Source of the DNA: Candidatus Moraniibacteriota bacterium
GTDB taxonomy: Bacteria > Patescibacteriota > Minisyncoccia > Moranbacterales > GCA-2747515
Assembly: GCA_942490825.1 (NCBI GenBank)
Contig: CALNYG010000004.1
Location: forward strand, 52,888 to 116,887
Length of the DNA stretch: 64,000 nucleotides
Direction of reading: 5' to 3'
This document shows positions 5,942-64,000 of the stretch, one piece after another (within the stretch, counting starts at the first letter, position 1; each line of letters opens with the position of its first letter). Below the pieces are notes generated by a model. That model made no database searches. It had not been told where the DNA came from and saw only the letters and a list, made by a program, of their open reading frames with translations. A program made the translations under genes and the position numbers.

Positions 5942-6976
5942 CTAAAACTGTTCTGCAAACCGAACATCACCACTGTGAAACAAACGAATATCATCAATCT
6001 TATATTTCATCATAGCCAATCGCTCCAAACCAAATCCCCAAGCAAATCCTTGATACTTATTTCTTTCATAACCCGCTGCTTCAAAAACATTTTGGTTAGT
6101 CATTCCTGCACCACCAACTTCAATCCAGCCAGTTTGCGAACAAGTACTACATCCATCACCATCACAATTTGTACAAGAAATATCAAATTCAAAACTAGGT
6201 TCTGTAAACGGAAAATAACTCGGTCGCAAACGTACTTCAATTTTTTTTCCAAAAAATTTTTCAAAAAAATTACCTGCTACAGAAAGAAAATTTGCCACAC
6301 TCACATCATCACCAACCACTAAAGCCTCAAACTGGTGAAAAGTATGTTCATGTGAAGCATCAGTCGCCTCACTTCGAAAAACTCTCCCTGGCACAATAAT
6401 TCTAAATGGTGGCTTATGCTCTTGCATATAGCGTATTTCTACAGATGAAGTTTGAGTCCGTAAAACTGTACCAGTCCCCTTCTCGCGACTTTCATCTTTT
6501 GAAATCCAAAAAGTGTCTTGCATATCTCGTCCAGGATGATCATCTGGCATATTAAGTGCATCAAAATTATAAAATTCAGTTTCCACATCTGGACCATCGG
6601 CAATCTCAAATCCCATTGTTGTGAAAATGTCTTCAATATCTCGTTGCACAATTGAAAGTGGATTTAAATGTCCTTGTTTAATTTTTTTTCCCGGAGTAGT
6701 TACATCAATCCATTCTTCTTTTGCATCAAAAGCTTCTTCAATCTCGCCTTTCTTTTTTTCTAAAATTTGCTGAATTTCTTGTTTAGTTTGATTTGCCAAC
6801 GGACCGATTTCTTTTTTTTCTTCTGGTGATAAATCTTTTAATCCTTTTAGAATTTCATTGAAAGCACTTTTTTTGCCGAGATAGTTTACTCGTAAATTTT
6901 CTACTTCTTCTAGGGTTTTTACTTTTTTAAGTCCACCCAACAGTTGGCTTTTGATCTCCTCTATTTTTTTTCGCAT
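5942..6976 (-). CDS. pheS: phenylalanine--tRNA ligase alpha subunit
   Basis: FRIIVPGRVFRSEATDASHEHTFHQFEALVVG, GWIEVGGAGM and GFAWGFGLERLAMMKY class II motifs. Confidence 0.95.
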   Translation of the reverse strand: MRKKIEEIKSQLLGGLKKVKTLEEVENLRVNYLGKKSAFNEILKGLKDLSPEEKKEIGPLANQTKQEIQQILEKKKGEIEEAFDAKEEWIDVTTPGKKIKQGHLNPLSIVQRDIEDIFTTMGFEIADGPDVETEFYNFDALNMPDDHPGRDMQDTFWISKDESREKGTGTVLRTQTSSVEIRYMQEHKPPFRIIVPGRVFRSEATDASHEHTFHQFEALVVGDDVSVANFLSVAGNFFEKFFGKKIEVRLRPSYFPFTEPSFEFDISCTNCDGDGCSTCSQTGWIEVGGAGMTNQNVFEAAGYERNKYQGFAWGFGLERLAMMKYKIDDIRLFHSGDVRFAEQF

Positions 6977-8325: not shown

Positions 8326-8410
8326 TTTTAAAACTCCTAAAAATTTTTTAATTTTTAAAGATTGACGAAAAAAAACTACTGTGTAACAATATAATTATAA
8401 ATACAATTAG

Positions 8411-8572
8411 TCAAGCGACGAAATGGTTTGCACCCATCGAGCTTGCGTGAACAGAGTTAACGATACAAACTCAAAAGAGCGCCCAAATAATTTCGGGAAG
8501 CTAAGTGGAACCGCCCTATTCTAGGGTCTTAGCATTATTTATGAAATTATTTAGGCGTTTTTTTGTTTTTTT
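8411..8572 (+). promoter_or_regulatory. T-box leader (Cys specifier UGC) of cysS
   Basis: Stem I is a K-turn: AAGC 8413-8416 pairs with GCUU 8441-8444, with a GAC bulge and tandem G.A pairs. It ends in a terminal loop UU-UGC-AC, with the codon at 8429-8431. The antiterminator is CUAAG-UGGAACC-GCCCUA-UUC-UAGGGU-CUUAG (8501-8532). A 15-bp helix (8480-8494 with 8543-8557) is followed by T7-G-T7. Confidence 0.85.
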
Positions 8573-8588
8573 GAACAAAATACTAATT

Positions 8589-8727
8589 CATGTCATCCCC
8601 GCGAAGGCGGGGATCCAGGAAAGCAATACTTTAAGTTTTAATACAAACAAAAGTTCATTTGCAAACTTTAAGTTTAATTTTCCTGGATTCCCTTCCACTT
8701 CGCTACGCTACGTACGGGAATGACATG
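8589..8727. repeat. family A nested-hairpin element, copy A1
   Basis: catgtcat-[ccccgcgaaggcgggg]-atccaggaaa ... tttcctggat-[tccc..cgctacgct..ggga]-atgacatg. Confidence 0.85.
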
Positions 8728-8745
8728 TACGAGAAGTAATGAAAA

Positions 8746-8762
8746 GCCCGTGCGGCGAGCAC
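8746..8762 (+). repeat. GC-rich 17-mer (gcccgtgcggcgagcac)
   Basis: Exact 17-mer flanked by aaaa/ttttt, 47 nt before the cysS ATG. Confidence 0.9.
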
Positions 8763-8809
8763 TTTTTATTTTTAAAAGTTTTAAATTGAATAATTAATAT
8801 ATAAAAAAT

Positions 8810-10279
8810 ATGTCAGAATTAAAAATCTACAACACACTCACAAATCAAAAAGAAGGATTCAAATCAATCAATGCTGGAAAAGTTGGAATTTACACTTGTG
8901 GACCAACCGTTTACGATTATATTCATATTGGAAATATTCGTTCTTACACTACTCCAGATGTTTTACGACGATATTTACTTTATTTAGGATACGAAGTTAA
9001 ACATATCAAAAATATCACTGATGTTGGACATTTAACTGAGGACGATCTCGCACAAGGTGACAGTGGCGAAGATAAGTTAGTAAAAAAATCTTTAAAAGAA
9101 AAGAAGTCTCCCGAAGAAATCGCTAGATTTTACGAAAATTATTTTAAAGAGACCGAGGAAGAAATGAATATTTTGCCAGCTAATTATTTTCCCCGTGCAA
9201 CAGCTCACATTCCGCAGATGATAAAAATAATTGAAAATTTAATCGAGAAAGGTTTTGCTTACGAAGCAAACGGAAACGTATTTTTCGATATTGAAAAATT
9301 TCCAGAATATGGAAAACTTTCCGGAAACACTTTAGAAAATTTAAAAGAAAATTCTCGTTTTGACGATCCACATCCTGACAAAAAAAATCAATGGGATTTT
9401 GCGTTATGGTTGAAAGCACCTGAAAATCATTTGATGCAGTGGAAAAGTCCATGGTCAATCGGTTATCCTGGATGGCACATTGAATGTTCAGCAATGAGTA
9501 CAGAATATTTAGGCGAGCAAATTGATTTTCATACTGGCGGTGAAGATAATATTTTTCCTCATCACGAAGCGGAAATTGCTCAGACGGAATGTCACACTGG
9601 ACATAAATGGGTAAATTATTGGATGCACACTCGCTACCTTTTAGTTGACGGCGAAAAAATGTCAAAGTCAAAAGGTAATTTTTATAAATTTGAAGATATT
9701 AAAGAAAATGGTTTTTCTGCAATGGATTTGCGAATGTTGATTTTGTCGTCTCATTATCGTTCTCAAATGAATTTTTCTTGGGAAAGTTTAACGCAAGCTC
9801 AAAAGAATATTAAGACTTTAGAGAACTTTTTTACTCGAATAAATAATTTAGAAAATGAAATAGAAAATAATGAAAGTAAAGTTGACGTGAAAGAATTTCA
9901 GAAAGAATTTGAGGATGCAATGAGTGATGATTTAAACACTCCGCAAGCTTTGAGTATCATTTTTGATTTTGTGAAAAATGTAAATTCTGTTTTAGATAAA
10001 AATGAAAATATTAATTTAAACGAAATAAAATCATTTTTTGAAAAAGTTTTAAATGTTTTAGGAATTAAAATTAAATCTAAAACAACCTACGTTAATTCAA
10101 AACTTACAATCAAAAGATCGATTGGAATTTCACAAGAAGTCTTAAATTTAGCAGAGCAACGCAAACAAGCTCGTGATGAAAAAAATTTTGAAAAATCTGA
10201 TCAGCTCCGTGATGAAATTAAAGATTTAGGTTTTGAAATTAAAGATGTCAAAGATGGCTATGAATTGGTGAAAATTTAA
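8810..10279 (+). CDS. cysS: cysteine--tRNA ligase
   Basis: HIGN (YIHIGNIRSY) and KMSKS class I motifs, plus GWHIECS. Confidence 0.95.
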   Translation: MSELKIYNTLTNQKEGFKSINAGKVGIYTCGPTVYDYIHIGNIRSYTTPDVLRRYLLYLGYEVKHIKNITDVGHLTEDDLAQGDSGEDKLVKKSLKEKKSPEEIARFYENYFKETEEEMNILPANYFPRATAHIPQMIKIIENLIEKGFAYEANGNVFFDIEKFPEYGKLSGNTLENLKENSRFDDPHPDKKNQWDFALWLKAPENHLMQWKSPWSIGYPGWHIECSAMSTEYLGEQIDFHTGGEDNIFPHHEAEIAQTECHTGHKWVNYWMHTRYLLVDGEKMSKSKGNFYKFEDIKENGFSAMDLRMLILSSHYRSQMNFSWESLTQAQKNIKTLENFFTRINNLENEIENNESKVDVKEFQKEFEDAMSDDLNTPQALSIIFDFVKNVNSVLDKNENINLNEIKSFFEKVLNVLGIKIKSKTTYVNSKLTIKRSIGISQEVLNLAEQRKQARDEKNFEKSDQLRDEIKDLGFEIKDVKDGYELVKI

Positions 10280-10290
10280 TTTCAACACAA

Positions 10291-10448
10291 CACAGGGTCG
10301 TGTTTCATAACCCCACCCAAAACATTTCTGAAAAAGTTTTGCGAAAAAATCAAAAATTGCACATGAACTTTACAAAAACATTATGGAACCAGTTATAAAA
10401 CTGGTTCCTGCGTAAATAATTACCAGAACAGGTTTTATAACCCGTTCC
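10291..10448. repeat. family B hairpin element, locus 1 (three hairpins)
   Basis: ggaaccagttataaaactggttcctgcg, gaacaggttttataacccgttcc and a degenerate cacagggtcgtgtttcataaccccaccc. Confidence 0.7.
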
Positions 10449-10533
10449 GTATACTTTTTTTCTACATATTTTTATTTAAAATAATTTTGACAAAAAATAT
10501 AAAAAGTGTAAAATTAAAATGTTGAACAATTTG

Positions 10534-10694
10534 TCAAGCGTTGAAATGGTTTACTACCCATTGAGCTTGCGTGAACAGAGTTAACGAAATAAACTCAAAA
10601 GAGCGCCCAAATAATTTCGGGAAGCTAAGTGGAACCGCCCTATTCTAGGGTCTTAGCATTATTTATGAAATTATTTAGGCGTTTTTTGTTTTTT
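10534..10694 (+). promoter_or_regulatory. T-box leader (Thr specifier ACU) of thrS
   Basis: Same architecture as 8411..8572. AAGC 10536-10539 pairs with GCUU 10565-10568. The loop is UUU-ACU-AC, with the codon at 10553-10555. The antiterminator spans 10625-10656 and the helix 3' strand 10667-10681 is followed by T6-G-T6. Confidence 0.85.
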
Positions 10695-10710
10695 GAACAA
10701 AATACTAATT

Positions 10711-10849
10711 CATGTCATCCCCGCGAAGGCGGGGATCCAGGAAAGTAATACTTTAAGTTTTAATATAAACAAAAGTTCATTTGCAAACTTTAAGTTTAAT
10801 TTTCCTGGATTCCCTTCCACTTCGCTACGCTACGTACGGGAATGACATG
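10711..10849. repeat. family A nested-hairpin element, copy A2
   Basis: Near-identical to A1. Confidence 0.85.
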
Positions 10850-10867
10850 TACGAGAAGTAATGAAAA

Positions 10868-10884
10868 GCCCGTGCGGCGAGCAC
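10868..10884 (+). repeat. GC-rich 17-mer
   Basis: Exact copy, 47 nt before the thrS ATG. Confidence 0.9.
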
Positions 10885-10931
10885 TTTTTTATTTATAATT
10901 TAAAAAGAATAATAATTAATATATAAAAAAT

Positions 10932-12749
10932 ATGTCAGAAAAAAAAGAACAAGAAAAAATTGATAAACAAATGATAAAGCGACATTCAACTGCACACGTA
11001 CTTGCAAATGCAGTTTTAGAAATGTTTCCAGAGGCAAAAATTGCCGTTGGACCAGCAACTGAAGATGGATTTTATCATGATTTTGAGTTACCTCGAAATC
11101 TAATTCCTGAAGATTTAGAAATTCTTGAAGAAAAAATGCGAGAAATTATTAAAGCAAATAATCCTTTTGAAAAATCTTCTATTTCAATTGAAGATGCAAT
11201 TGAGAAATATGAAAAATTAGGTCAAAAATATAAAGTGGAATTAATTAAAGATTTGGCTGAAAATGGTGAAACTGAAGTTTCTATTTATAAATCTGGAAAT
11301 TATGTTGATCTTTGTGCCGGACCACATTTAGATTCAACTGGAGAAATTAATAAACAAGCTTTTAAACTGACTAAATTTTCTGGAGCTTATTGGAAAGGAG
11401 ATGAAAAACGTGAGCAACTTCAAAGAATTTATGGTGTTGTTTTCAATGATAAAAAGCAATTGAAACAATATTTATTTCAACAGGAAGAGGCTAAAAAACG
11501 TGATCATCGGAAACTCGGAAAAGAATTAAAATTGTTTACAATCGATCCGAATGTTGGACTTGGCTTACCACTTTACAAACCAAATGGTGCAATGGTATTT
11601 AATCTTTTGAAAAGATGGTTTGAAGATGAACAATTGAAGCGTGGCTATGTTCCTGTTATTACTCCACATATTGGACGAAAAAGTCTTTGGGAAACTTCTG
11701 GTCACTGGGGATTTTACAATGAATCAATGTATCCTCCGTTAGAATTAGGTCAAACTCTTGAAGATTATCAAGACAGTCGAAAACCAAATGAAAATGAGAC
11801 TTATCTTTTGAAACCGATGAATTGTCCTTTTCATGTTGCTATTTTTAATGATGATCAATTTTCTTACCGAGATTTGCCGATTAAATATTATGAATTTGGA
11901 ACTGTTTATCGATTTGAGCAAAAAGGTGAATTGAGCGGACTTACTCGCGTGCGTGGATTTACTCAAGATGACGCTCATATCGTTTGCACTAAAGATCAAT
12001 TGGAAGAGGAAATGAAAAAGATGATCGATTTCGCTTCCTATGTTTTACGAGATACTTTTGGTTTTGAAATTGAAATTTATGCTTCTTTCCGTGATCCTAA
12101 AAAAGAAAAATATTTAGGAAATGATGAAAAATGGAATGTTGCTGAAAGTACTATTATTAAAATTTTAGAAGATAAAAAAATTGATTATAAAAAAGAGATT
12201 GGTGAAGCTGCTTTCTACGGACCAAAGATGGATTTTAAAGTTAAGGACTCCCTTGGTCGTCAGTGGCAACTTTCAACAATTCAATTTGATTTTAATCTTC
12301 CTGAAAGATTTGATATGACTTTTGTGAATAATGAAGGTGAGAAAGAACAACCTTACATGATTCACCGAGCATTGTTTGGGTCAGTTGATCGTTTCATGGG
12401 AATTATAATTGAACATTTTGCTGGTGCCTTCCCCACTTGGTTAGCTCCAAAGCAAGTTGTGATTGTTCCTGTTTCTGAAAAGTTTAATGATTATGCTGAA
12501 GAAGTTCGCGTAAAACTTTTTGAAAAAAATATTCGTGTGGAAGCTGATACTCGAGATGAGAGCTTAGGTAAAAGAATTCGTGAATCGGAAAAAATGAAAG
12601 TTCCTTATATTTTGGTTGTTGGTGAAAAGGAGATGAATGATAAAACTGTGGCTGTTCGTGCTAGGGATAACAAGGAAAATAAACAGGAAGTTGTTAAGTT
12701 TGATGATTTTGTTATGAATATTTTAGAAGAGATTTTGGAGAGGAAATAG
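10932..12749 (+). CDS. thrS: threonine--tRNA ligase (no N-terminal TGS domain)
   Basis: HSTAHVLANAV editing-domain HxxxH motif, class II core (FRFEQKGELSGLTRVRGFTQDDAH) and a C-terminal anticodon-binding domain. Confidence 0.95.
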   Translation: MSEKKEQEKIDKQMIKRHSTAHVLANAVLEMFPEAKIAVGPATEDGFYHDFELPRNLIPEDLEILEEKMREIIKANNPFEKSSISIEDAIEKYEKLGQKYKVELIKDLAENGETEVSIYKSGNYVDLCAGPHLDSTGEINKQAFKLTKFSGAYWKGDEKREQLQRIYGVVFNDKKQLKQYLFQQEEAKKRDHRKLGKELKLFTIDPNVGLGLPLYKPNGAMVFNLLKRWFEDEQLKRGYVPVITPHIGRKSLWETSGHWGFYNESMYPPLELGQTLEDYQDSRKPNENETYLLKPMNCPFHVAIFNDDQFSYRDLPIKYYEFGTVYRFEQKGELSGLTRVRGFTQDDAHIVCTKDQLEEEMKKMIDFASYVLRDTFGFEIEIYASFRDPKKEKYLGNDEKWNVAESTIIKILEDKKIDYKKEIGEAAFYGPKMDFKVKDSLGRQWQLSTIQFDFNLPERFDMTFVNNEGEKEQPYMIHRALFGSVDRFMGIIIEHFAGAFPTWLAPKQVVIVPVSEKFNDYAEEVRVKLFEKNIRVEADTRDESLGKRIRESEKMKVPYILVVGEKEMNDKTVAVRARDNKENKQEVVKFDDFVMNILEEILERK

Positions 12750-14463: not shown

Positions 14464-14480
14464 GTGCTCGCCGCACGGGC
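14464..14480 (-). repeat. GC-rich 17-mer (reverse orientation)
   Basis: gtgctcgccgcacgggc followed by ttttt, 34 nt after the miaA stop. Confidence 0.9.
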
Positions 14481-16301: not shown

Positions 16302-16321
16302 AAAAAAATTATATTATATTT

Positions 16322-16456
16322 ATGTTATCCCCGCGTAGGCGGGGATCCAGGAAAATAAAACTTTAAGATTTAACGTAAACAAAAATTAATTACAAAACTT
16401 TTAATTTAATTTTCCTAGATTCCCTTCCCTTACGCTACGCTCCAGCCGGGAATGAC
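16322..16456. repeat. family A nested-hairpin element, copy A3
   Basis: atgttat-[ccccgcgtaggcgggg]-atccaggaaa ... tttcctagat-[tccc..cgctacgct..ggga]-atgac. Confidence 0.8.
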
Positions 16457-16498
16457 AACTGTGATTGATAAATATTATAAAAAAATATTATAACACAC

Positions 16499-20575: not shown

Positions 20576-20592
20576 GTGCTCGCCGCACGGGC
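20576..20592 (-). repeat. GC-rich 17-mer
   Basis: Exact copy 31 nt upstream of the gatB start. It reads gcccgtg..gcac toward the gene. Confidence 0.9.
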
Positions 20593-34311: not shown

Positions 34312-34328
34312 GTGCTCGCCGCACGGGC
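34312..34328 (-). repeat. GC-rich 17-mer
   Basis: Exact copy, 65 nt upstream of the 34246 start. Confidence 0.9.
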
Positions 34329-35141: not shown

Positions 35142-35158
35142 GTGCTCGCCGCACGGGC
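35142..35158 (-). repeat. GC-rich 17-mer
   Basis: Exact copy, 10 nt after the stop of 34631..35131. Confidence 0.9.
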
Positions 35159-35223: not shown

Positions 35224-35376
35224 CATGTCATTCCGGAAAATAATTTTGTAACGTAGTGGAGAAATTATTTTCCGGAATCTAGGAAATTTTAAGATAAATA
35301 ATAAGCTTTGAATTTTCAACTTTCTTTTATTTTCCTAGATTCTCTTCTTCTCCGCCACGCTCCAGCCGGGAATGAC
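35224..35376. repeat. family A nested-hairpin element, copy A5 (long-arm form)
   Basis: catgtcat-[tccggaaaataatttt..aaattattttccgga]-atctaggaaa ... tttcctagat-[tctc..ccacgctccagccggga]-atgac. Confidence 0.8.
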
Positions 35377-35444
35377 AAAGTAAAATAATTGTAATTTTGT
35401 AATCTAATTAATTTTCGATGATGAGTTTTTGGGTTGTAATTATT

Positions 35445-37564: not shown

Positions 37565-38890
37565 CTATTTAATTTTCTCAATCACACTCTTATTATTCGG
37601 CATAAACGGTCGCAAAACCTCCGGCACAACCACACTACCATCCTCCTGCTGAAAGTTCTCCAGAATCGCAATAAAAATCCTTGGTGACGGCAACGCAGTA
37701 TTATTCAACATATAAACATACTTTTTCTTACCATCCTTATCTTTATATTTAACATTCAACCGACGAGACTGCCAATCAAGAAAATTACTCGCACTCCCCG
37801 TCTCACCCCAACGATCCAATCCAGGCAACCATGCTTCAGAATCAAACATTCGATATTTCCCCGCACTCATATCACCCGTACAAATTTCTAATTTACGATA
37901 AGGAATCCCTAAGTCCATATGCATCTCCTCAGAAACACCAATCATTTCTTCCTGCAACTTCTCCGTCGCCTCAACGTCCGCTGGAGCTAAAACAACCTGC
38001 TCAATTTTCATAAACTCATGCACTCGATACATTCCAACAGTATCTTTTCCATAACTACCAATCTCACTTCGATAACATTGACTGTAACCACACATCTTCA
38101 TCGGCAACTGACTCTCATCTAAAGTTTCACCAGAATAATATGCCAAAAGTGAAGGCTCAGCCGTTCCAACCAAAAATTTATTCTCCTTTTTAGCTTTACC
38201 ATCAGCCTCAACCTCATCATTAGCCACTCGATAAATTTCATCTTCTTCTGTAAATTCCGTACCTTTAAAATATCCGCTTCCAAACAAAGGAAATTCTTTA
38301 ATTAAAGTTGGTGGAATCATCGGAGAAAAACCTTTTGAAATCATTTTTTGCATACCGTACATCATAATTGCCATCGTCAAAGCCGCTCCGTCATTTTTCA
38401 AATAGTATCCACGAAAACCGGCAACCTTAACACCACGTTCAAAATCAATCAAATCTAAATCTTTTCCAATCTCAATGTGAGTTTTTGGCGTAAAATCAAA
38501 TTCCCGTTTTTCACCTTTTTCGTAAACCACTCGATTATCGTTTTCATTTTTTCCCACAGGAACATCTGACGCAGTAACTGTTGGCACTTTTACCATCAAT
38601 TCCTCAAACTTTTCTTTAATCTCTTTCAAAGCTGGCTCTTTCGCCTCAAATTTAGCTTTAATTTCTTTTCCTTCTGCGATAATCACTTGTCGTTCTTCAT
38701 TATTCTGAGCTGTTTTCATTTTTTGATTCAACTCATTTTTCGCCGCTTGCAACTCTTCCAATTCCTGCATTATTGCAACACGCTCTTTATCGATTTTTAA
38801 AAGTTCTTGAATATCAACTTTAATATTTTTATTTTCTGCAGCTTCCTGAATCGCCTCAGCATTTTCTCGTATAAATTTTATATCTAACAT
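37565..38890 (-). CDS. serS: serine--tRNA ligase
   Basis: N-terminal coiled coil and class II motifs (CYRSEIGSYGKDTVGMYRVHEF, TALPSPRIFIAILEN). Confidence 0.95.
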   Translation of the reverse strand: MLDIKFIRENAEAIQEAAENKNIKVDIQELLKIDKERVAIMQELEELQAAKNELNQKMKTAQNNEERQVIIAEGKEIKAKFEAKEPALKEIKEKFEELMVKVPTVTASDVPVGKNENDNRVVYEKGEKREFDFTPKTHIEIGKDLDLIDFERGVKVAGFRGYYLKNDGAALTMAIMMYGMQKMISKGFSPMIPPTLIKEFPLFGSGYFKGTEFTEEDEIYRVANDEVEADGKAKKENKFLVGTAEPSLLAYYSGETLDESQLPMKMCGYSQCYRSEIGSYGKDTVGMYRVHEFMKIEQVVLAPADVEATEKLQEEMIGVSEEMHMDLGIPYRKLEICTGDMSAGKYRMFDSEAWLPGLDRWGETGSASNFLDWQSRRLNVKYKDKDGKKKYVYMLNNTALPSPRIFIAILENFQQEDGSVVVPEVLRPFMPNNKSVIEKIK

Positions 38891-48149: not shown

Positions 48150-48166
48150 GTGCTCGCCGCACGGGC
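48150..48166 (-). repeat. GC-rich 17-mer
   Basis: Exact copy, 52 nt upstream of the helicase start. Confidence 0.9.
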
Positions 48167-48204: not shown

Positions 48205-48515
48205 TATGAATCAGTCGTTGAGAAGTTAGTTTAATTCTTGCGATTGCATTGTGAAAGTTTGTTGTTCTTGTTGTTCTTTGGGTAAAACATTTCCCGTAAA
48301 TCAATTTTATCAAAAAAGGAGAAAAAGTGTCTGTAAAAAATAAAACCATTATTTTTACCACTCTTCTAGTTATCTTCATCAAACCTGCACTGAGACCCTT
48401 CACAAAATTGTGTCTGATAGTAAAATTAAATTAATAAATTTAATAATAAAATCATGTCAGACAAGAAAAATAGAACCGAAGAATTATTAGAAAAAAACAT
48501 AAAAAACTGGTATTG

Positions 48516-48959
48516 CTACTCAAATATAGAAATAGCAATTTCTCTGTGCATGAATAGCAAGATTGTATATTCAACCATTTCAATACTTTTAGAATAACAA
48601 TGAGTTTTCCTATGAAATCTTGCTATATAATGTCTTAATTGATTATTCATTTCTTCAACTGTAAAAGTCTCTGCTTTTGTTTGAATGTGCTTATCTTTTG
48701 GTAAAAATTTTTTATAAACATCCCAATGATCTGAACAGTATTTATCGCAATCAATTTTTTGATTTTGTCCCATAATTTTCTTCCAGTTTTTTCACCTCTT
48801 GTCCCTATCACGAAATCAATTATTATTTTACTAGATCTATCAACTGCAAGCCAAATCCAGTGCTTTTTTCTTTTTTAACACAAAAATGCCACATTTCATC
48901 TAATTCCATTTTTTCTATTTTCCAATATTTTACTTCTTTTTTACTTTTTAAAATATTCC
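48516..48959 (-). pseudogene. insB: IS1 InsB-like DDE region with extra frameshifts (copy A)
   Basis: DEMWHF, ..WIWLAVD.. and ..CDKYCSDHWDVYKKF..RKTHCYSKS lie in three different frames. Confidence 0.7.
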
Positions 48960-49214
48960 TTAATTTTTTAGTTGCTTTTTTACCCATCTTAATATACTAA
49001 CGTTACTAACTTTCAGTATTCTTCCTATTGATCTAAATCCTAGTCCCTCTAAATACATTTCAATTGCTTTTTTCTTAATTTCTTTAGGTTTTCCTCTTTT
49101 TGTAAATCTAGAAAAGTTATAGCTACATTCTTTACATAGATATCTTTGTTTTTTATTTACTTTACCATTTTTAACATAATTCTTATTATTGCAATGAGGG
49201 CATTTAATTTTCAT
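48960..49214 (-). CDS. insA: IS1 InsA-like Zn-finger/HTH protein
   Basis: CPHCNNKNYVKNGKVNKKQRYLCKEC plus the helix-turn-helix GFRSIGRILKVSNVSILRW. It ends just after an A AAA AAG heptamer. Confidence 0.75.
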   Translation of the reverse strand: MKIKCPHCNNKNYVKNGKVNKKQRYLCKECSYNFSRFTKRGKPKEIKKKAIEMYLEGLGFRSIGRILKVSNVSILRWVKKQLKN

Positions 49215-50710
49215 TTTTTTGTTTTTAGGTATTTAATTACCTATTCATTTTACATTATCTATAGTTTGGTAGCAATACCAAAAAACTTAAGAGAAAATCT
49301 AGATGATTTATCCATGGATAAATTCATAGGAAAAACAATAGAAACCTTAATGCTAATAGAAAGAGATGAGTATTTAGAAGATATTAATAAAACTAAAAAA
49401 GATAAAGGAAATGGATCATACGGAAGAGCTATGAATTCATTATCAAAAAACTCATTACTTGTTCATATTCCAAGAACTAGAACAGGATTATTCTCTCCAG
49501 CAACACTAGAACTTTTAAAAATTAACAGAGAAAAAGTAGATGAAATAGCTTTATCTTTATATAAAAAAGGAATGACTTCCAATGACATTAATGAATTTTT
49601 AAATGAAATTTTTGAAGAAAACATGTCTCCTGCTAAGATATCTAATTTAGCAAAAGTATTTAATAAATTTAGAATAGCTTGGCAAAATTCCAAATTAGAA
49701 AAACATTACAAAGTTGTTTATGGAGATGTAATTTTCATTACTGTGCGAAGAGGTGATGAATACGCTAAGGAAGGTGTATTTATTGCTTTTGGAGTAAGAG
49801 AAGATAATAGACGAGAATTGCTTTGTTTAAGTCAAAATCCAACCGAATCAGCAGAATTTTGGAAAGAATTATTGCAAGATTTAAGAGAAGAAAGAGGTGT
49901 TCAACAAATAGATTTATTTGTAGCTGATGGATTAAAAAATTTAGAAAATGTATTTTTAGAAATATATCCCCAAGGAGAATTTCAAAAGTGCGTAGTTCAT
50001 AAACAAAGAAATATTTTAAACAAAACAAGACCGAAAGATAAAAAAGAAATAGGAGAAGATTTAAAAGAAATATTTAATAATTTTGAAGAAAATGATACAA
50101 TTGAAAAAGCCTTGAAAAAAGTAAATAATTTTTTAGAAAAATGGAAAACAAAATATCCAAATTTTAAAAATCATTTTACAGAAATTGAATATTATTTTAC
50201 ATATATTAAATTCAATCCTCGAGTAAGAAGAATGATTTATACAACTAATTCAATTGAAAATTTGAATAGGCAAATTAGAAAAACTACAAAGAATAAATTA
50301 TCATTTGAATCTCCCGAAAGATTATTGGACTATGTATTTATGGTTATTAAGGAGTTTGAAGAAAAAAATTATATGAAATATCCTGTTTCTAATTTTAAAT
50401 ATTTTAATAAAATTAAGAAAGGTTAAATGGGCGATGGACACACTTTGTTGAAGGGTCCCCCTGCACTCGCAGATGAAAGGATCGAGGTGCCCAATGAAGA
50501 TCTTGCATCTACTATCAGCGATGTCTTAAATACTGCGCAGGGTAATACTGGAGTGGTTACAGTCAATTATGCGTATGGAGATGGAGAATCTGAAACTTCT
50601 GTCATACGGATAAAACCAACCATCAGGGGAACGGCTGTGAGTGTCACACCAAGTAGTTCCACACTAACTCCTAGCCTAGATGATTGATTAACAACTCGTC
50701 ACATTGTGGC

Positions 50711-51509: not shown

Positions 51510-51526
51510 GCCCGTGCGGCGAGCAC
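51510..51526 (+). repeat. GC-rich 17-mer
   Basis: Exact copy, 43 nt before the priA ATG. Confidence 0.9.
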
Positions 51527-53587: not shown

Positions 53588-53604
53588 GTGCTCGCCGCAC
53601 GGGC
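53588..53604 (-). repeat. GC-rich 17-mer
   Basis: Exact copy, 35 nt after the priA stop. Confidence 0.9.
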
Positions 53605-61487: not shown

Positions 61488-63221
61488 TTAATTATCCAAC
61501 TGAACCCAAGAAGTTCCGTTATATCCGTAAAAATGGTTATCGGTTGAATTGTAATAAATACCGCCTTCGATTCCAGTTGGAGCGGAAGAAGAAGTTCCTT
61601 GGACAACAACTCCTTTTAGGTGTGTTTCTGTTATTGAGTTATTTCCTAAAGTAGCTGTATTATCACCATTACCTTCAGCATCATACCCAATAACAATTTC
61701 ATTTGTTACAATTGAAGATTCACCAGTTGTATATGCACCTAAATATAAAGAGTCAGAAGTATTACTTAAAGATCCGCCTGCATTAGTATTTCTCCCAGCA
61801 ATTGTGCCCAAAAAAGTAGAATTTGCAGCATCTGAATATCTTCCAGCACTATAACCAATAGCTGTTACATCTGCAGCACTGGCATTTTGAGCTGCCTGAG
61901 CACCAATAATAGTTGCATGAGGGTTAGAACCTATATATCTACCAGCACCTAATCCACCAATTATCACACCTCCGTAACCAGTTGAGCCTATTGCACTAGA
62001 ATCTCCGATAAGGATAGTGGCTGATGACGGGCGTCCAATGTAGGTATTATCAATATAAATATGATTTAATGCTGTTAAACTTTCTGTATCAATTTGAGAA
62101 GCACCATTAACGCTAATCCAACCGTCATTTCGAATACTAAATAAATTACTATCAGAGCTATTATCAACTTTTAAAGCATAAGCTGTGTCATCAGAAGTAG
62201 AGCCTTTAACATGAATTCGAGCATTTGGAGTTGATTGCCCTATTCCCAACCTATTTTCACCATCATCCCAAAACAAATTACCATTATCCTCAGTAACCCC
62301 TGAACTTGAAGTAAACAAAAGTGAACCTTCTGTATATGAATTAATCGTATCTGTTAAATTTAGAAAATTAGTTGAATGAGGATTAGCTGTATCTGAAGTA
62401 TGTGTGCTTATTGTAGTTGAATCATCTAAATCATCTAAATTTATAGTGTTTCCATCTGAAATTGAAAGTTCATTATTAATTAAATTGTAAGATAGCTCTT
62501 GTTTTAAATCATCTAAATCTACAGTATTTCCATTCGAAATTGAAAGTTCGCCATTACTTTCATTAAAATCTAAATCTTGTTTTAAATCTGATAAGTCTAC
62601 ATCATTACCATTCGAAATAGATAATGTATCATTATTAAAACTTAAAGTTTGTTCATCATCATCAATATCTTCTTCACAAATAAATTCATTACCATTCCAG
62701 ATTAATTTTTCTATTGAACTGCAAGTTGGTGATTCTATTGAAAGTTTGTCATTACTATCTATTTCTAATCCATTTTCTGTTGTTATGCTCTTCCCCGCAT
62801 CTCCACAAGCCCATTGATCATCATCCCAAATTAGAGTTTTGTTATCTTCTTTACATTCCAAACTTCCCGAACTATTTACTTTTACGTTGTTTTTATCTAG
62901 TTCTCCAAAAACTGCACTTGTTGGCTTTTTACATTCCCACATTTTTAATCCTCCATGCCATTGTAAAATTCTATCATCTTCAATACATTCTATTTTTCCG
63001 TCTTGTTGTTTAATTGTGTTGGTATCAAAATTTAAAGATATATTACTAGCTGTTCCCACGCCTGTGCTGGCGAAAGTTTTATAAAGCAAAATTAAAACTA
63101 CAATAACTGCAATAGTTAATGTTATTTTGAAAAATTTGGATTTTTTGGGTTCCGGAGTTTTTTGAGAGAAAAGTTTTTGAGCATTTCTGCTTGATTGGCT
63201 TTGTGAAGATGCCTGATTCAT
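61488..63221 (-). CDS. secreted repeat-containing adhesin/tail-fiber-like protein
   Basis: N-terminal TM helix; three C..L.W.g..W.C modules; three LSISNGN(D/T)VDL(S/D)DLKQ(D/E)L repeats; Gly/Ala-rich AIGYSAGR-type repeats; C-terminal FYGYNGTSWVQL. Confidence 0.6.
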   Translation of the reverse strand: MNQASSQSQSSRNAQKLFSQKTPEPKKSKFFKITLTIAVIVVLILLYKTFASTGVGTASNISLNFDTNTIKQQDGKIECIEDDRILQWHGGLKMWECKKPTSAVFGELDKNNVKVNSSGSLECKEDNKTLIWDDDQWACGDAGKSITTENGLEIDSNDKLSIESPTCSSIEKLIWNGNEFICEEDIDDDEQTLSFNNDTLSISNGNDVDLSDLKQDLDFNESNGELSISNGNTVDLDDLKQELSYNLINNELSISDGNTINLDDLDDSTTISTHTSDTANPHSTNFLNLTDTINSYTEGSLLFTSSSGVTEDNGNLFWDDGENRLGIGQSTPNARIHVKGSTSDDTAYALKVDNSSDSNLFSIRNDGWISVNGASQIDTESLTALNHIYIDNTYIGRPSSATILIGDSSAIGSTGYGGVIIGGLGAGRYIGSNPHATIIGAQAAQNASAADVTAIGYSAGRYSDAANSTFLGTIAGRNTNAGGSLSNTSDSLYLGAYTTGESSIVTNEIVIGYDAEGNGDNTATLGNNSITETHLKGVVVQGTSSSAPTGIEGGIYYNSTDNHFYGYNGTSWVQLDN

Positions 63222-63264
63222 AGCATTTTTATTTTAAAATAAGAACTGATTTTTATATTTTTTT

Positions 63265-64000
63265 GGTATTGCTACTCAAATATAGAAATAGCAATTTCTC
63301 TGTGCATGAATAGCAAGATTGTATATTCAACCATTTCAATACTTTTAGAATAACAATGAGTTTTCCTATGAAATCTTGCTATATAATGTCTTAATTGATT
63401 ATTCATTCCTTCAACTGTAAAAGTCTCTGCTTTTGTTTGAATGTGCTTATCTTTTGGTAAAAATTTTTTATAAACATCCCAATGATCTGAACAGTATTTA
63501 TCGCAATCAATTTTTTTGATTTTGTCCCATAATTTTCTTCCAGTTTTTTCACCTCTTGTCCCTATCACGAAATCAATTATTATTTTACTAGATCTATCAA
63601 CTGCAAGCCAAATCCAGGCTTTTTTCTTTTTTTTAACACAAAATGCCACATTTCATCTAATTCCATTTTTTCTATTTTCCAATATTTTACTTCTTTTTTA
63701 CTTTTTAAAATATTCCTTAATTTTTTAGTTGCTTTTTTTACCCATCTTAATATACTAACGTTACTAACTTTCAGTATTCTTCCTATTGATCTAAATCCTA
63801 GTCCCTCTAAATACATTTCAATTGCTTTTTTTTCTTAATTTCTTTAGGTTTTCCTCTTTTTGTAAATCTAGAAAAGTTATAGCTACATTCTTTACATAGA
63901 TATCTTTGTTTTTTATTTACTTTACCATTTTTAACATAATTCTTATTATTGCAATGAGGGCATTTAATTTTCATTTTTTTGTTTTTAGGTATTTAATTAC
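63265..64000 (-). mobile_element. IS1-family insertion sequence, copy B (runs off the window)
   Basis: Same end ggtattgctactc as copy A, and colinear with it to the window edge. It begins 43 nt upstream of the adhesin start. Confidence 0.85.
63272..63974 (-). pseudogene. IS1 InsA/InsB reading frames of copy B, with frame changes at homopolymer runs
   Basis: ATG at 63974. A T8 run (versus T6 in copy A) breaks InsA. An A AAA AAG heptamer lies in frame before AWIWLAVDRSS. Confidence 0.7.

Follow-up and report, generated by a model that had tools for sequence, protein, structure and literature searches.

Paired T-box-like leaders upstream of cysS and thrS in a Moranbacteria genome

We analyzed a stretch of 64,000 nucleotides (nt) from Candidatus Moraniibacteriota bacterium (NCBI GenBank assembly GCA_942490825.1, contig CALNYG010000004.1, positions 52,888 to 116,887 of the forward strand), here called the window, in which the genes for cysteine--tRNA ligase (cysS) and threonine--tRNA ligase (thrS) are each directly preceded, on the same strand, by one of two nearly identical leader sequences; the same placement is found in relatives. 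Taken as a single reading, with the switch and the history proposed below included, it is likely that both intervals are 5' leaders of the T-box kind, the first specific for tRNA-Cys and the second for tRNA-Thr, the directly shown part of it being the sequence anatomy, the covariation, and the phylogenetic pattern. Judged by its protein homologues, the host belongs to the Moranbacteria/Parcubacteria part of the candidate phyla radiation (CPR).

The two copies lie 2.1 kb apart in direct orientation. A first-pass annotation of this DNA had described them as aligning almost base for base, and our MAFFT alignment of 8403-8818 with 10526-10940 agrees (391 of 417 columns identical, 93.8%). Identity to the thrS counterpart is 96.4% over 8403-8767 and 98.3% (296/301) over 8467-8767, and it drops in the flanks, to 55% upstream of 8403 and 33% beyond 8818. 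The individual features listed by that annotation are all present: the terminal loop of Stem I is UUUGCAC (8427-8433) in the Cys leader and UUUACUAC (10550-10557) in the Thr leader; the kink-turn (K-turn) bulge is GAC (8417-8419) in the former and GUU in the latter; position 8438 is C in the Cys leader and U in the Thr leader, giving A.C versus A-U; and the U-run, a repeat of about 140 nt resembling a miniature inverted-repeat transposable element (MITE), the 17-mer GCCCGTGCGGCGAGCAC, and the codons ATG TCA GAA are common to both. The parts of the alignment downstream of the U-runs are as follows.

8586 to 8725, plus strand: MITE-like inverted-repeat element of the cysS leader (repeat family D1).
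8746 to 8762, plus strand: 17-mer GCCCGTGCGGCGAGCAC, an exact copy, followed by a T-run.
8768 to 8788, plus strand: AT-rich patch that the thrS leader does not have (13 of 21 positions different).
8789 to 8818, plus strand: 30 nt identical to the thrS leader by alignment, including ATG TCA GAA of cysS.
8810 to 10279, plus strand: cysS, cysteine--tRNA ligase (TIGR00435, 481 bits).
10708 to 10847, plus strand: MITE-like element of the thrS leader, with an orthologous copy in the thrS leader of locus L086.
10868 to 10884, plus strand: 17-mer GCCCGTGCGGCGAGCAC of the thrS leader.
10932 to 12749, plus strand: thrS, threonine--tRNA ligase (TIGR00418, 718 bits).

Counted on the pairwise alignment, the differences are clustered in Stem I rather than evenly spread, as had been claimed: there are 5 difference events in the 32 nt of Stem I versus 5 in the following 324 nt (Fisher p = 8e-4), and 8 in the first 64 nt versus 3 in the following 301 nt (Fisher p = 6e-5). 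The statement that the copies differ essentially at the specifier holds as far as this cluster goes; it leaves out two further differences at 8464 and 8466, in the loop of the hairpin after Stem I, as well as the densest block of all, the AT-rich patch at 8768-8788 between the 17-mer and the conserved 30 nt ending in ATG TCA GAA. The second copy is not an assembly artifact, as the same pair is found in independent ENA, NCBI, and Logan assemblies (loci L086, L087, and L090). Following up the suggestion that more copies might exist, a motif search and a covariance-model search found none in the window besides these two, and neither pheS (5942-6976, minus strand) nor serS (37565-38890, minus strand) has such a leader before it; leaders of the same kind do occur in related genomes.

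Related leaders were collected with a ThrS query (L002, L004, L009, L014, and L020), by a DNA pattern scan of metagenomes (L081 to L085), through the nearest CysS homologues (L086, 83% identical; L087/L088, 80%; L089, 79%; and L090, 76%), and with a covariance model built in this analysis. The pattern scan yielded only five leaders, all of Thr type; three sit immediately upstream of thrS, and this genome contributed none. Thr leaders of this minimal type are widespread in metagenome-assembled genomes labeled Patescibacteria. At gathering thresholds, Rfam gave no match in the window or in 11 related loci, so that annotation based on Rfam misses every leader examined here. The best and only sensible match is to the T-box family RF00230, at 22.5 bits and E = 0.002 in a search of 185 nt, where the gathering threshold is 93. 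In that alignment the model matches the K-turn at the base of Stem I, as well as Stem III and the T-box bulge, and deletes 76 distal Stem I positions and the whole of Stem II; together with the anatomy of the discriminator given below, it bears out the earlier identification of the leaders as T-box type. A search of 3.2 kb with E values up to 10 returned nothing beyond chance-level hits of small RNA and microRNA families (FtrB and WsnRNA46) on the MITE, which we rejected. The elements of the two leaders, with the basis for each, are listed here.

8362 to 8390, plus strand: promoter-like site of the cysS leader, with TTGACG, a 17-nt spacer, and TG-n-AACAAT (consensus scan; putative function).
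8412 to 8445, plus strand: ultrashort Stem I of the Cys leader (Rfam T-box alignment; compensatory changes in both helices among 16 leaders).
8412 to 8416 with 8441 to 8445, plus strand: C-stem of the Cys Stem I, with the K-turn bulge at 8417 to 8419 (sequence reading).
8420 to 8421 with 8439 to 8440, plus strand: tandem G.A/A.G, followed by a 5-bp helix, 8422 to 8426 with 8434 to 8438 (sequence reading).
8429 to 8431, plus strand: specifier UGC (Cys), then A8432; UGC-A is also in the cysS leaders of L086, L087, and L090.
8446 to 8472, plus strand: Stem IIA/B-like element with the hairpin GAGUU (8454 to 8458)/AACUC (8468 to 8472), whose pairs covary.
8477 to 8499, plus strand: purine string GAGCG (8477 to 8481), Stem III (8482 to 8497, CCC.AA/UU.GGG), whose pairs covary, and AA (8498 to 8499).
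8500 to 8533, plus strand: antiterminator-like element, the best-matching segment of the Rfam T-box alignment.
8500 to 8505 with 8528 to 8533, plus strand: helix A1 of the Cys leader, followed by the T-box bulge UGGAACC (8506 to 8512) and helix A2 (8513 to 8518 with 8522 to 8527).
8473 to 8572, plus strand: predicted intrinsic terminator, 5' arm 8473 to 8494, 3' arm 8543 to 8564, U-run 8558 to 8572 (minimum free energy [MFE] fold).
10487 to 10514, plus strand: promoter-like site of the thrS leader, TTGACA, 16 nt, TAAAAT (consensus scan; putative function).
10535 to 10569, plus strand: ultrashort Stem I of the Thr leader, with the K-turn bulge GUU at 10540 to 10542 and the terminal loop at 10550 to 10557 (alignment and covariation).
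10553 to 10555, plus strand: specifier ACU (Thr), then A10556 (sequence reading).
10597 to 10694, plus strand: discriminator and terminator of the Thr leader, with Stem III at 10606 to 10621 and the 3' arm and U-run at 10667 to 10694.
10624 to 10629 with 10652 to 10657, plus strand: helix A1 of the Thr leader, with the bulge UGGAACC at 10630 to 10636.

Stem I has the sequence pattern of a K-turn, that is, a C-stem, a 3-nt bulge, and tandem G.A/A.G (8412-8421 with 8439-8445). The long Stem I of known T-boxes, with its specifier internal loop and distal platform, is missing; a terminal loop of 7 to 8 nt stands in place of the 76 model positions. Stem II is absent in the clade of the window, and a candidate Stem II is present in L002 and L083 to L085. 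Downstream, GAGCG-CCCAAAUAAUUUCGGG-AA at 8477-8499 (GAGAG-Stem III-AA in relatives) and a G.U pair at the base of A2, G8513.U8527 here and G.U in 13 of the 16 leaders, match the conserved discriminator features RRRxG-Stem III-AA and G.U at the A2 base listed in PMC7583486, and the 7-nt UGGNACC bulge is found as UGGAACC between A1 and A2, both of which covary.

For covariation, 16 leaders were aligned to their own covariance model, and the resulting values should be read with the caveat that a model-fitted alignment somewhat favors the structure. The predicted partners can pair in 90.5% of cells, versus 44 to 45% when the partner is shifted by one column; 27 of the 33 pairs show compensatory, both-side changes, and every helix is supported. 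A1 is paired in 100% of cells and A2 in 90%, with five compensatory pairs each. When the transcript is made to end before the 3' arm of the terminator, the unconstrained MFE fold consists of Stem I, the hairpin, Stem III, and A1/bulge/A2. The linker CGU at 8446-8448 is also complementary to ACG in the hairpin loop at 8460-8462 of the Cys leader (10570-10572 with 10584-10586 in the Thr leader), and this pairing of 3 to 4 bp covaries in relatives (ACA:UGU, CCG:CGG, UCCG:CGGA, AGCA:UGCU, and ACGA:UCGU), which suggests a small IIA/B-like pseudoknot.

The annotation had also placed the codon for the downstream synthetase two nt before the 3' strand of the helix in both copies, and this rule extends to related genomes, where the specifier lies two nt before that strand in all 16 leaders. 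In each case it is followed by a purine, as UGC-A and ACU-A are here: UGC-A precedes four cysS genes (those from which Stem I was recovered), and ACU-A or ACC-A is in the loop of 12 of 12 Thr leaders, most of them directly before thrS. At L084 1374-1685 and L090 2949-3297, the Thr leader precedes not thrS directly but a small gene (beginning MTNCYLDNETKNIAFIDGQNLHMGTT in L084 and MSKKESINNIAFIDGQNLYMGTT in L090), for whose 45 available residues no Pfam match was found. We considered the 7-nt loop as a mimic of an anticodon loop, with UGC as an Ala anticodon, and rejected this idea, since the Thr loop has 8 to 9 nt and the codon rule fits both genes. On the side of the tRNA, the UGGA of the bulge predicts U73 as the discriminator base of the cognate tRNA. 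U73 of tRNA-Cys is a general identity element, and it is present in one Patescibacteria-related tRNA-Cys (L059 4751-4822). Scans of the window and all fetched loci for tRNA genes found no tRNA-Thr and this one distant tRNA-Cys, with no tRNA gene in the window itself.

In both leaders, the MFE fold is dominated by a long helix between AAAAGAGCGCCCAAAUAAUUUC (8473-8494) and GAAAUUAUUUAGGCGUUUUUUU (8543-8564), which runs into a 7+7 U-run. The 5' arm of this predicted terminator combines the purine string with the first half of Stem III, and the helix encloses A1/bulge/A2; in the canonical layout, the 5' strand would be the 3' half of the antiterminator, whereas here both A1 and A2 remain formed within the terminator hairpin of the MFE fold. 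The calculated energies are -35.1 kcal/mol for the terminator helix versus -16.0 kcal/mol for Stem III plus the antiterminator. Among the eight closest leaders, the 20 terminator pairs are 93% paired, 3 of them with compensatory changes; more distant leaders have other arm sequences in the same terminator topology, and the mean pairing energy is -27.5 kcal/mol for cognate arms versus -13.7 kcal/mol for arms combined across clades, a comparison for which the 3' arms of the distant leaders were picked by hand. In L002 and L083 to L085, the partners of the distal arm include the 5' strand of A1, so that it would compete directly with the antiterminator, from the side opposite to that in the canonical design. 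The more distant L004 and L009 follow the canonical layout.

Over the 37 start regions of the whole window, a Shine-Dalgarno-like sequence was found for one gene (1/37), which makes a translational switch unlikely. Because of this near absence of Shine-Dalgarno sequences and the evidence for the terminator helix, we infer tRNA-dependent transcription attenuation as the probable mode of action. A translational T-box like the ultrashort ileS class of Actinobacteria, acting on ribosome access, would fit the published record to the extent that a terminal-loop specifier has so far been described for translational ileS T-boxes only (bioRxiv 10.1101/2023.02.28.530422; PMC7583486); for the present leaders we regard it as extremely improbable, given that there is no Shine-Dalgarno sequence to sequester, that the switch helix ends in the 7+7 U-run, that the start codon lies 30 to 240 nt beyond the U-run, and that the terminal-loop Patescibacteria leaders L004 and L009 have classical G+C hairpin and U-run terminators. 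Many start codons in the window have a TATAAT-like sequence a short distance upstream, and this, with the scarcity of Shine-Dalgarno sequences, hints that mRNA leaders may be short or absent in this lineage.

Under transcription attenuation, we infer tRNA binding, termination, and selection, and the switch may be pictured as follows. A separate promoter probably serves each leader; at the position of the cysS promoter-like site, relatives carry TTGACA-17-TAGAAT or TATAAT. When uncharged, tRNA-Cys (anticodon GCA) or tRNA-Thr would pair with the codon in the terminal loop of the short K-turn Stem I, and the free NCCA end of the same tRNA would pair with the UGGA of the 7-nt bulge that separates A1 from A2. 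A tRNA bound at both sites would lock the discriminator formed by Stem III, A1, and A2, and the Stem III strand would thereby be kept from the distal arm. Without this lock, the distal segment just ahead of the U-run would pair with the 5' half of Stem III and with the purine string that precedes it, and the resulting helix of about 22 bp, which ends in the U-run, would probably stop transcription short of the synthetase gene. Downstream of the cysS stop codon, at 10383-10451, there are two adjacent hairpins (GGAACCAGTTATAAAACTGGTTCC and CAGAACAGGTTTTATAACCCGTTCCG) and a T-run, probably the cysS terminator ahead of the thrS promoter; hairpins resembling them are found at the equivalent place in L086, L087, and L089.

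The region between the U-run and the start codon is occupied by repeats. The MITE-like element is about 140 nt long, has the terminal inverted repeats TGTCATCCCCG ... CGGGAATGACA, and folds to a long hairpin (-55 kcal/mol, z -7.8); there are copies at 8586-8725, 10708-10847, 16318-16457, and 35325-35378 as well as at 3428-3565 of L086. The leaders of L081 and L083 have unrelated long inverted repeats at the same spot, between the T-box terminator and the start codon. The 17-mer (GTGCTCGCCGCACGGGC), flanked by A-runs and T-runs, occurs in nine exact copies in the window, against a chance expectation of none (8746-8762, 10868-10884, 14464-14480, 20576-20592, 34312-34328, 35142-35158, 48150-48166, 51510-51526, and 53588-53604). 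Its copies are at convergent gene ends and, in the GCCCG... orientation, 31 to 52 nt upstream of the start codons of cysS, thrS, priA, gatB, and a PcrA-like helicase gene; in relatives it is exact in L086 and L092 and a variant in L087. We rejected the 17-mer as a strong terminator on account of its weak hairpin (-6 to -7 kcal/mol, z -0.6); it could be a site like the repetitive extragenic palindromic (REP) elements, a protein-binding site, or a weak bidirectional terminator.

This spacer raises the question of whether the leaders still act on their genes. They could be relics or decoupled, with cysS and thrS transcribed from a proximal promoter downstream of the 17-mer and the T-box giving a short terminated RNA or nothing useful. 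The 240-nt insertion between U-run and ATG would suit such an arrangement, as would a 17-mer placed as if at the boundaries of transcription units (convergent gene ends and the positions before priA, gatB, and the PcrA-like helicase gene), the only diverged block, at 8768-8788, where the -35 element of a proximal promoter would be, and the TATAAT-like sequences near the ATG of many genes. We nevertheless consider decoupling unlikely: the specifier, the bulge, the G.U pair, and the paired helices are conserved with compensatory changes across lineages, Stem I has stayed gene specific despite homogenization of the rest, and the 17-mer hairpin is weak. In L087 (thrS) and L090 (cysS), moreover, the U-run lies only about 30 to 40 nt from the ATG, with neither 17-mer nor MITE between them.

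The history of the pair can be read from the relatives L086, L087, and L090, each of which has leaders of both specificities, Cys and Thr. The grouping of Stem I is by gene: that of the window thrS leader is the same as that of L087 thrS and a single change away from the L086 one, against 5 to 8 differences between paralogues in the Stem I columns. Outside Stem I, the grouping is by genome, with the window paralogues differing at 3 of 119 positions and the L086 orthologues differing from the window leaders at 6 and 8 positions; columns 81, 152, 8, 26, and 58 of the alignment labeled A2 carry genome-specific states common to both paralogues of one genome. A 198-nt stretch containing the MITE (8573-8770) is 98% identical to its counterpart in the thrS leader and 78% identical to that in the L086 thrS leader, and the cysS leaders of L086 and L089 have no MITE but a small unrelated hairpin. 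The N terminus of CysS is MSELKIY only in the window and L086 and is MLKIY or MLKLY in L087, L089, L090, and L092; as ThrS begins with MSEK, this shows that the thrS start region, with its two extra codons, has been grafted onto cysS. Before more distant cysS genes (71, 69, and 65% identical) no T-box was found, L091 and L093 being without one and L092, with only 267 nt of upstream sequence, being uninformative.

Since separate Cys and Thr versions, with Stem I grouped by gene, are present in relatives whose CysS is 76 to 83% identical, the retargeting is old, and the near-identity of the two leaders in this genome is best read as the result of later gene conversion from thrS to cysS that spared Stem I. 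The annotation had proposed a recent duplication or gene conversion followed by retargeting through a codon swap; gene conversion is retained here, and the order is reversed, with the Cys and Thr loops predating the homogenization. A very recent duplication of the whole cassette in this genome, retargeted afterward by a codon swap, would account for 98% identity over 300 nt, mobile-element insertion included, and for loops only two small changes apart, yet it is decidedly improbable, as gene-specific Cys and Thr forms of Stem I already exist in L086, L087, and L090 and the difference between the loops therefore predates the homogenizing event. Old paralogues kept alike by purifying selection on a functional RNA, with no gene conversion at all, seem more doubtful still: the T-box core (Stem III, bulge, A1, and A2) is indeed highly conserved between genomes too and has few informative sites, but selection on the RNA would explain neither a MITE and spacer that are 98% identical here, 78% identical to the L086 orthologue, and absent from the cysS leaders of L086 and L089, nor a thrS-type ATG TCA GAA on cysS in two genomes only.

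The most economical history would thus be one of copying and retargeting followed by conversion. The thrS leader would be the older of the two and would have been copied to a place before the adjacent cysS in the ancestor of a narrow clade, where two changes in the loop, from UUUACUAC to UUUGCAC by one A-to-G substitution and the loss of one U, would have retargeted it from Thr to Cys. Repeated gene conversion from thrS to cysS would have followed, with Stem I escaping each time: an older tract would have put the thrS start region ATG TCA GAA onto cysS, and a recent one, in this genome, would have carried the MITE and the 17-mer into the cysS leader. Stem I presumably remained gene specific through selection against converted specifiers.

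Several points weigh against this interpretation of the leaders as tRNA-sensing switches with such a past. The Rfam score is far below the gathering threshold (22.5 versus 93 bits). Missing are both the platform for the tRNA elbow and Stem II, the part of a T-box that contacts the codon-anticodon duplex, so that the affinity for tRNA could be too low. The anticodons and the U73 of tRNA-Thr are predicted, the tRNA genes lying outside the window. In the folding model, the terminator of the window clade leaves A1 and A2 intact, so that antitermination would have to act via Stem III alone, and Stem III as predicted is weak (three G-C pairs, an A.C mismatch, and two A-U pairs). The start codon lies about 240 nt beyond the U-run, past a strong MITE hairpin and a 17-mer that is found elsewhere at gene ends. 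Lastly, conversion within the T-box core rests on few informative sites.

Two other repeats were noticed in the window. One, of about 730 nt, is found at 48508-49240 and 63264-64000, with segments 88 to 100% identical, and overlaps the start of a Mutator/IS256-family transposase gene (open reading frame [ORF] 49146-50426; PF00872, 241 bits); an insertion sequence is probably present here twice, with its second copy truncated at the end of the window. The other consists of three tandem 78-nt units (62 to 78% identical) at 62427-62660, inside an ORF of 577 amino acids (61488-63221, minus strand) for which Pfam gave no match.

A further proposal, to which we would give a little less than an even chance, is that these leaders are an undescribed, natural, minimal class of transcriptional T-boxes, apparently spread across Patescibacteria/CPR, with the specifier in the terminal loop, no platform, no Stem II (in this clade), and a terminator that mirrors the textbook switch by invading Stem III (in the sister clade also the 5' strand of the T-box) from a distal 3' arm, and that the cysS/thrS pair is a case of natural reprogramming in which selection keeps the two distinct while gene conversion goes on in all other parts. 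If functional, the leaders would be among the smallest natural tRNA-sensing riboswitches, with a length of about 125 nt counted from the K-turn through A1, and would extend T-box regulation to CPR bacteria; literature searches for T-box with CPR or Patescibacteria found no paper. They would also contradict two published statements, on the need of transcriptional T-boxes for a long Stem I platform (PMC7583486) and on the confinement of terminal-loop T-boxes to translational ileS leaders of Actinobacteria (bioRxiv 10.1101/2023.02.28.530422). The pair would show that few changes suffice to retarget a T-box, and would present the concerted evolution of a regulatory RNA and its paralogue in which only the specificity hairpin is protected by selection; this is of use to those who engineer riboswitches or model how regulons grow.

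Set beside known systems, the leaders have the discriminator of a T-box and lack the platform, the terminator layout, and the Rfam score of one, as well as the context of the ultrashort class; what is new is the CPR host, the terminal-loop specifiers for Thr and Cys, and the layout of the terminator. With the class I T-boxes of Firmicutes (RF00230; for example, the Bacillus subtilis thrS and cysE-cysS leaders) they share the position as a synthetase 5' leader, the K-turn at the base of Stem I, the specifier followed by a purine, RRRxG-Stem III-AA, the 7-nt UGGNACC bulge, G.U at the base of A2, and a helix with a U-run. They differ from these in a Stem I of 10 bp with the specifier in its terminal loop, in having neither the platform of AG bulge and distal loop nor Stem II, and in a terminator whose 5' arm lies upstream instead of being the 3' strands of A1/A2, with the 5' strand of A1 added in the sister clade; according to PMC7583486, transcriptional T-boxes generally need a long Stem I. 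The ultrashort class (Sherwood, Grundy, and Henkin 2015, as summarized for the ileS T-boxes of Actinobacteria in bioRxiv 10.1101/2023.02.28.530422 and PMC7583486) is similar in its short Stem I, terminal-loop specifier, and missing elbow platform. According to those two sources, it is known for ileS and tRNA-Ile only and is translational, and Stem II is held to be essential for it (PMC7913692), whereas the genes here are thrS and cysS, the specifiers are UGC and ACU, the CPR host is without Shine-Dalgarno sequences, the switch platform resembles an intrinsic terminator with a U-run, and Stem II is absent in the window clade. The glyQS T-boxes likewise are compact transcriptional leaders without Stem II, but they retain the long Stem I and elbow-binding platform (PMC7583486) that are missing here. 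Duplication with a subsequent change of specifier is already known as a route of T-box evolution, since T-boxes of Firmicutes were proposed to have duplicated and then diverged toward a new specificity (Wels et al. 2008, PMC2494555). Unlike those cases, the present pair has both states and the neighboring donor side by side, with a switch reducible to two mutations and with direct evidence that gene conversion is continuing and leaves the specifier hairpin untouched.

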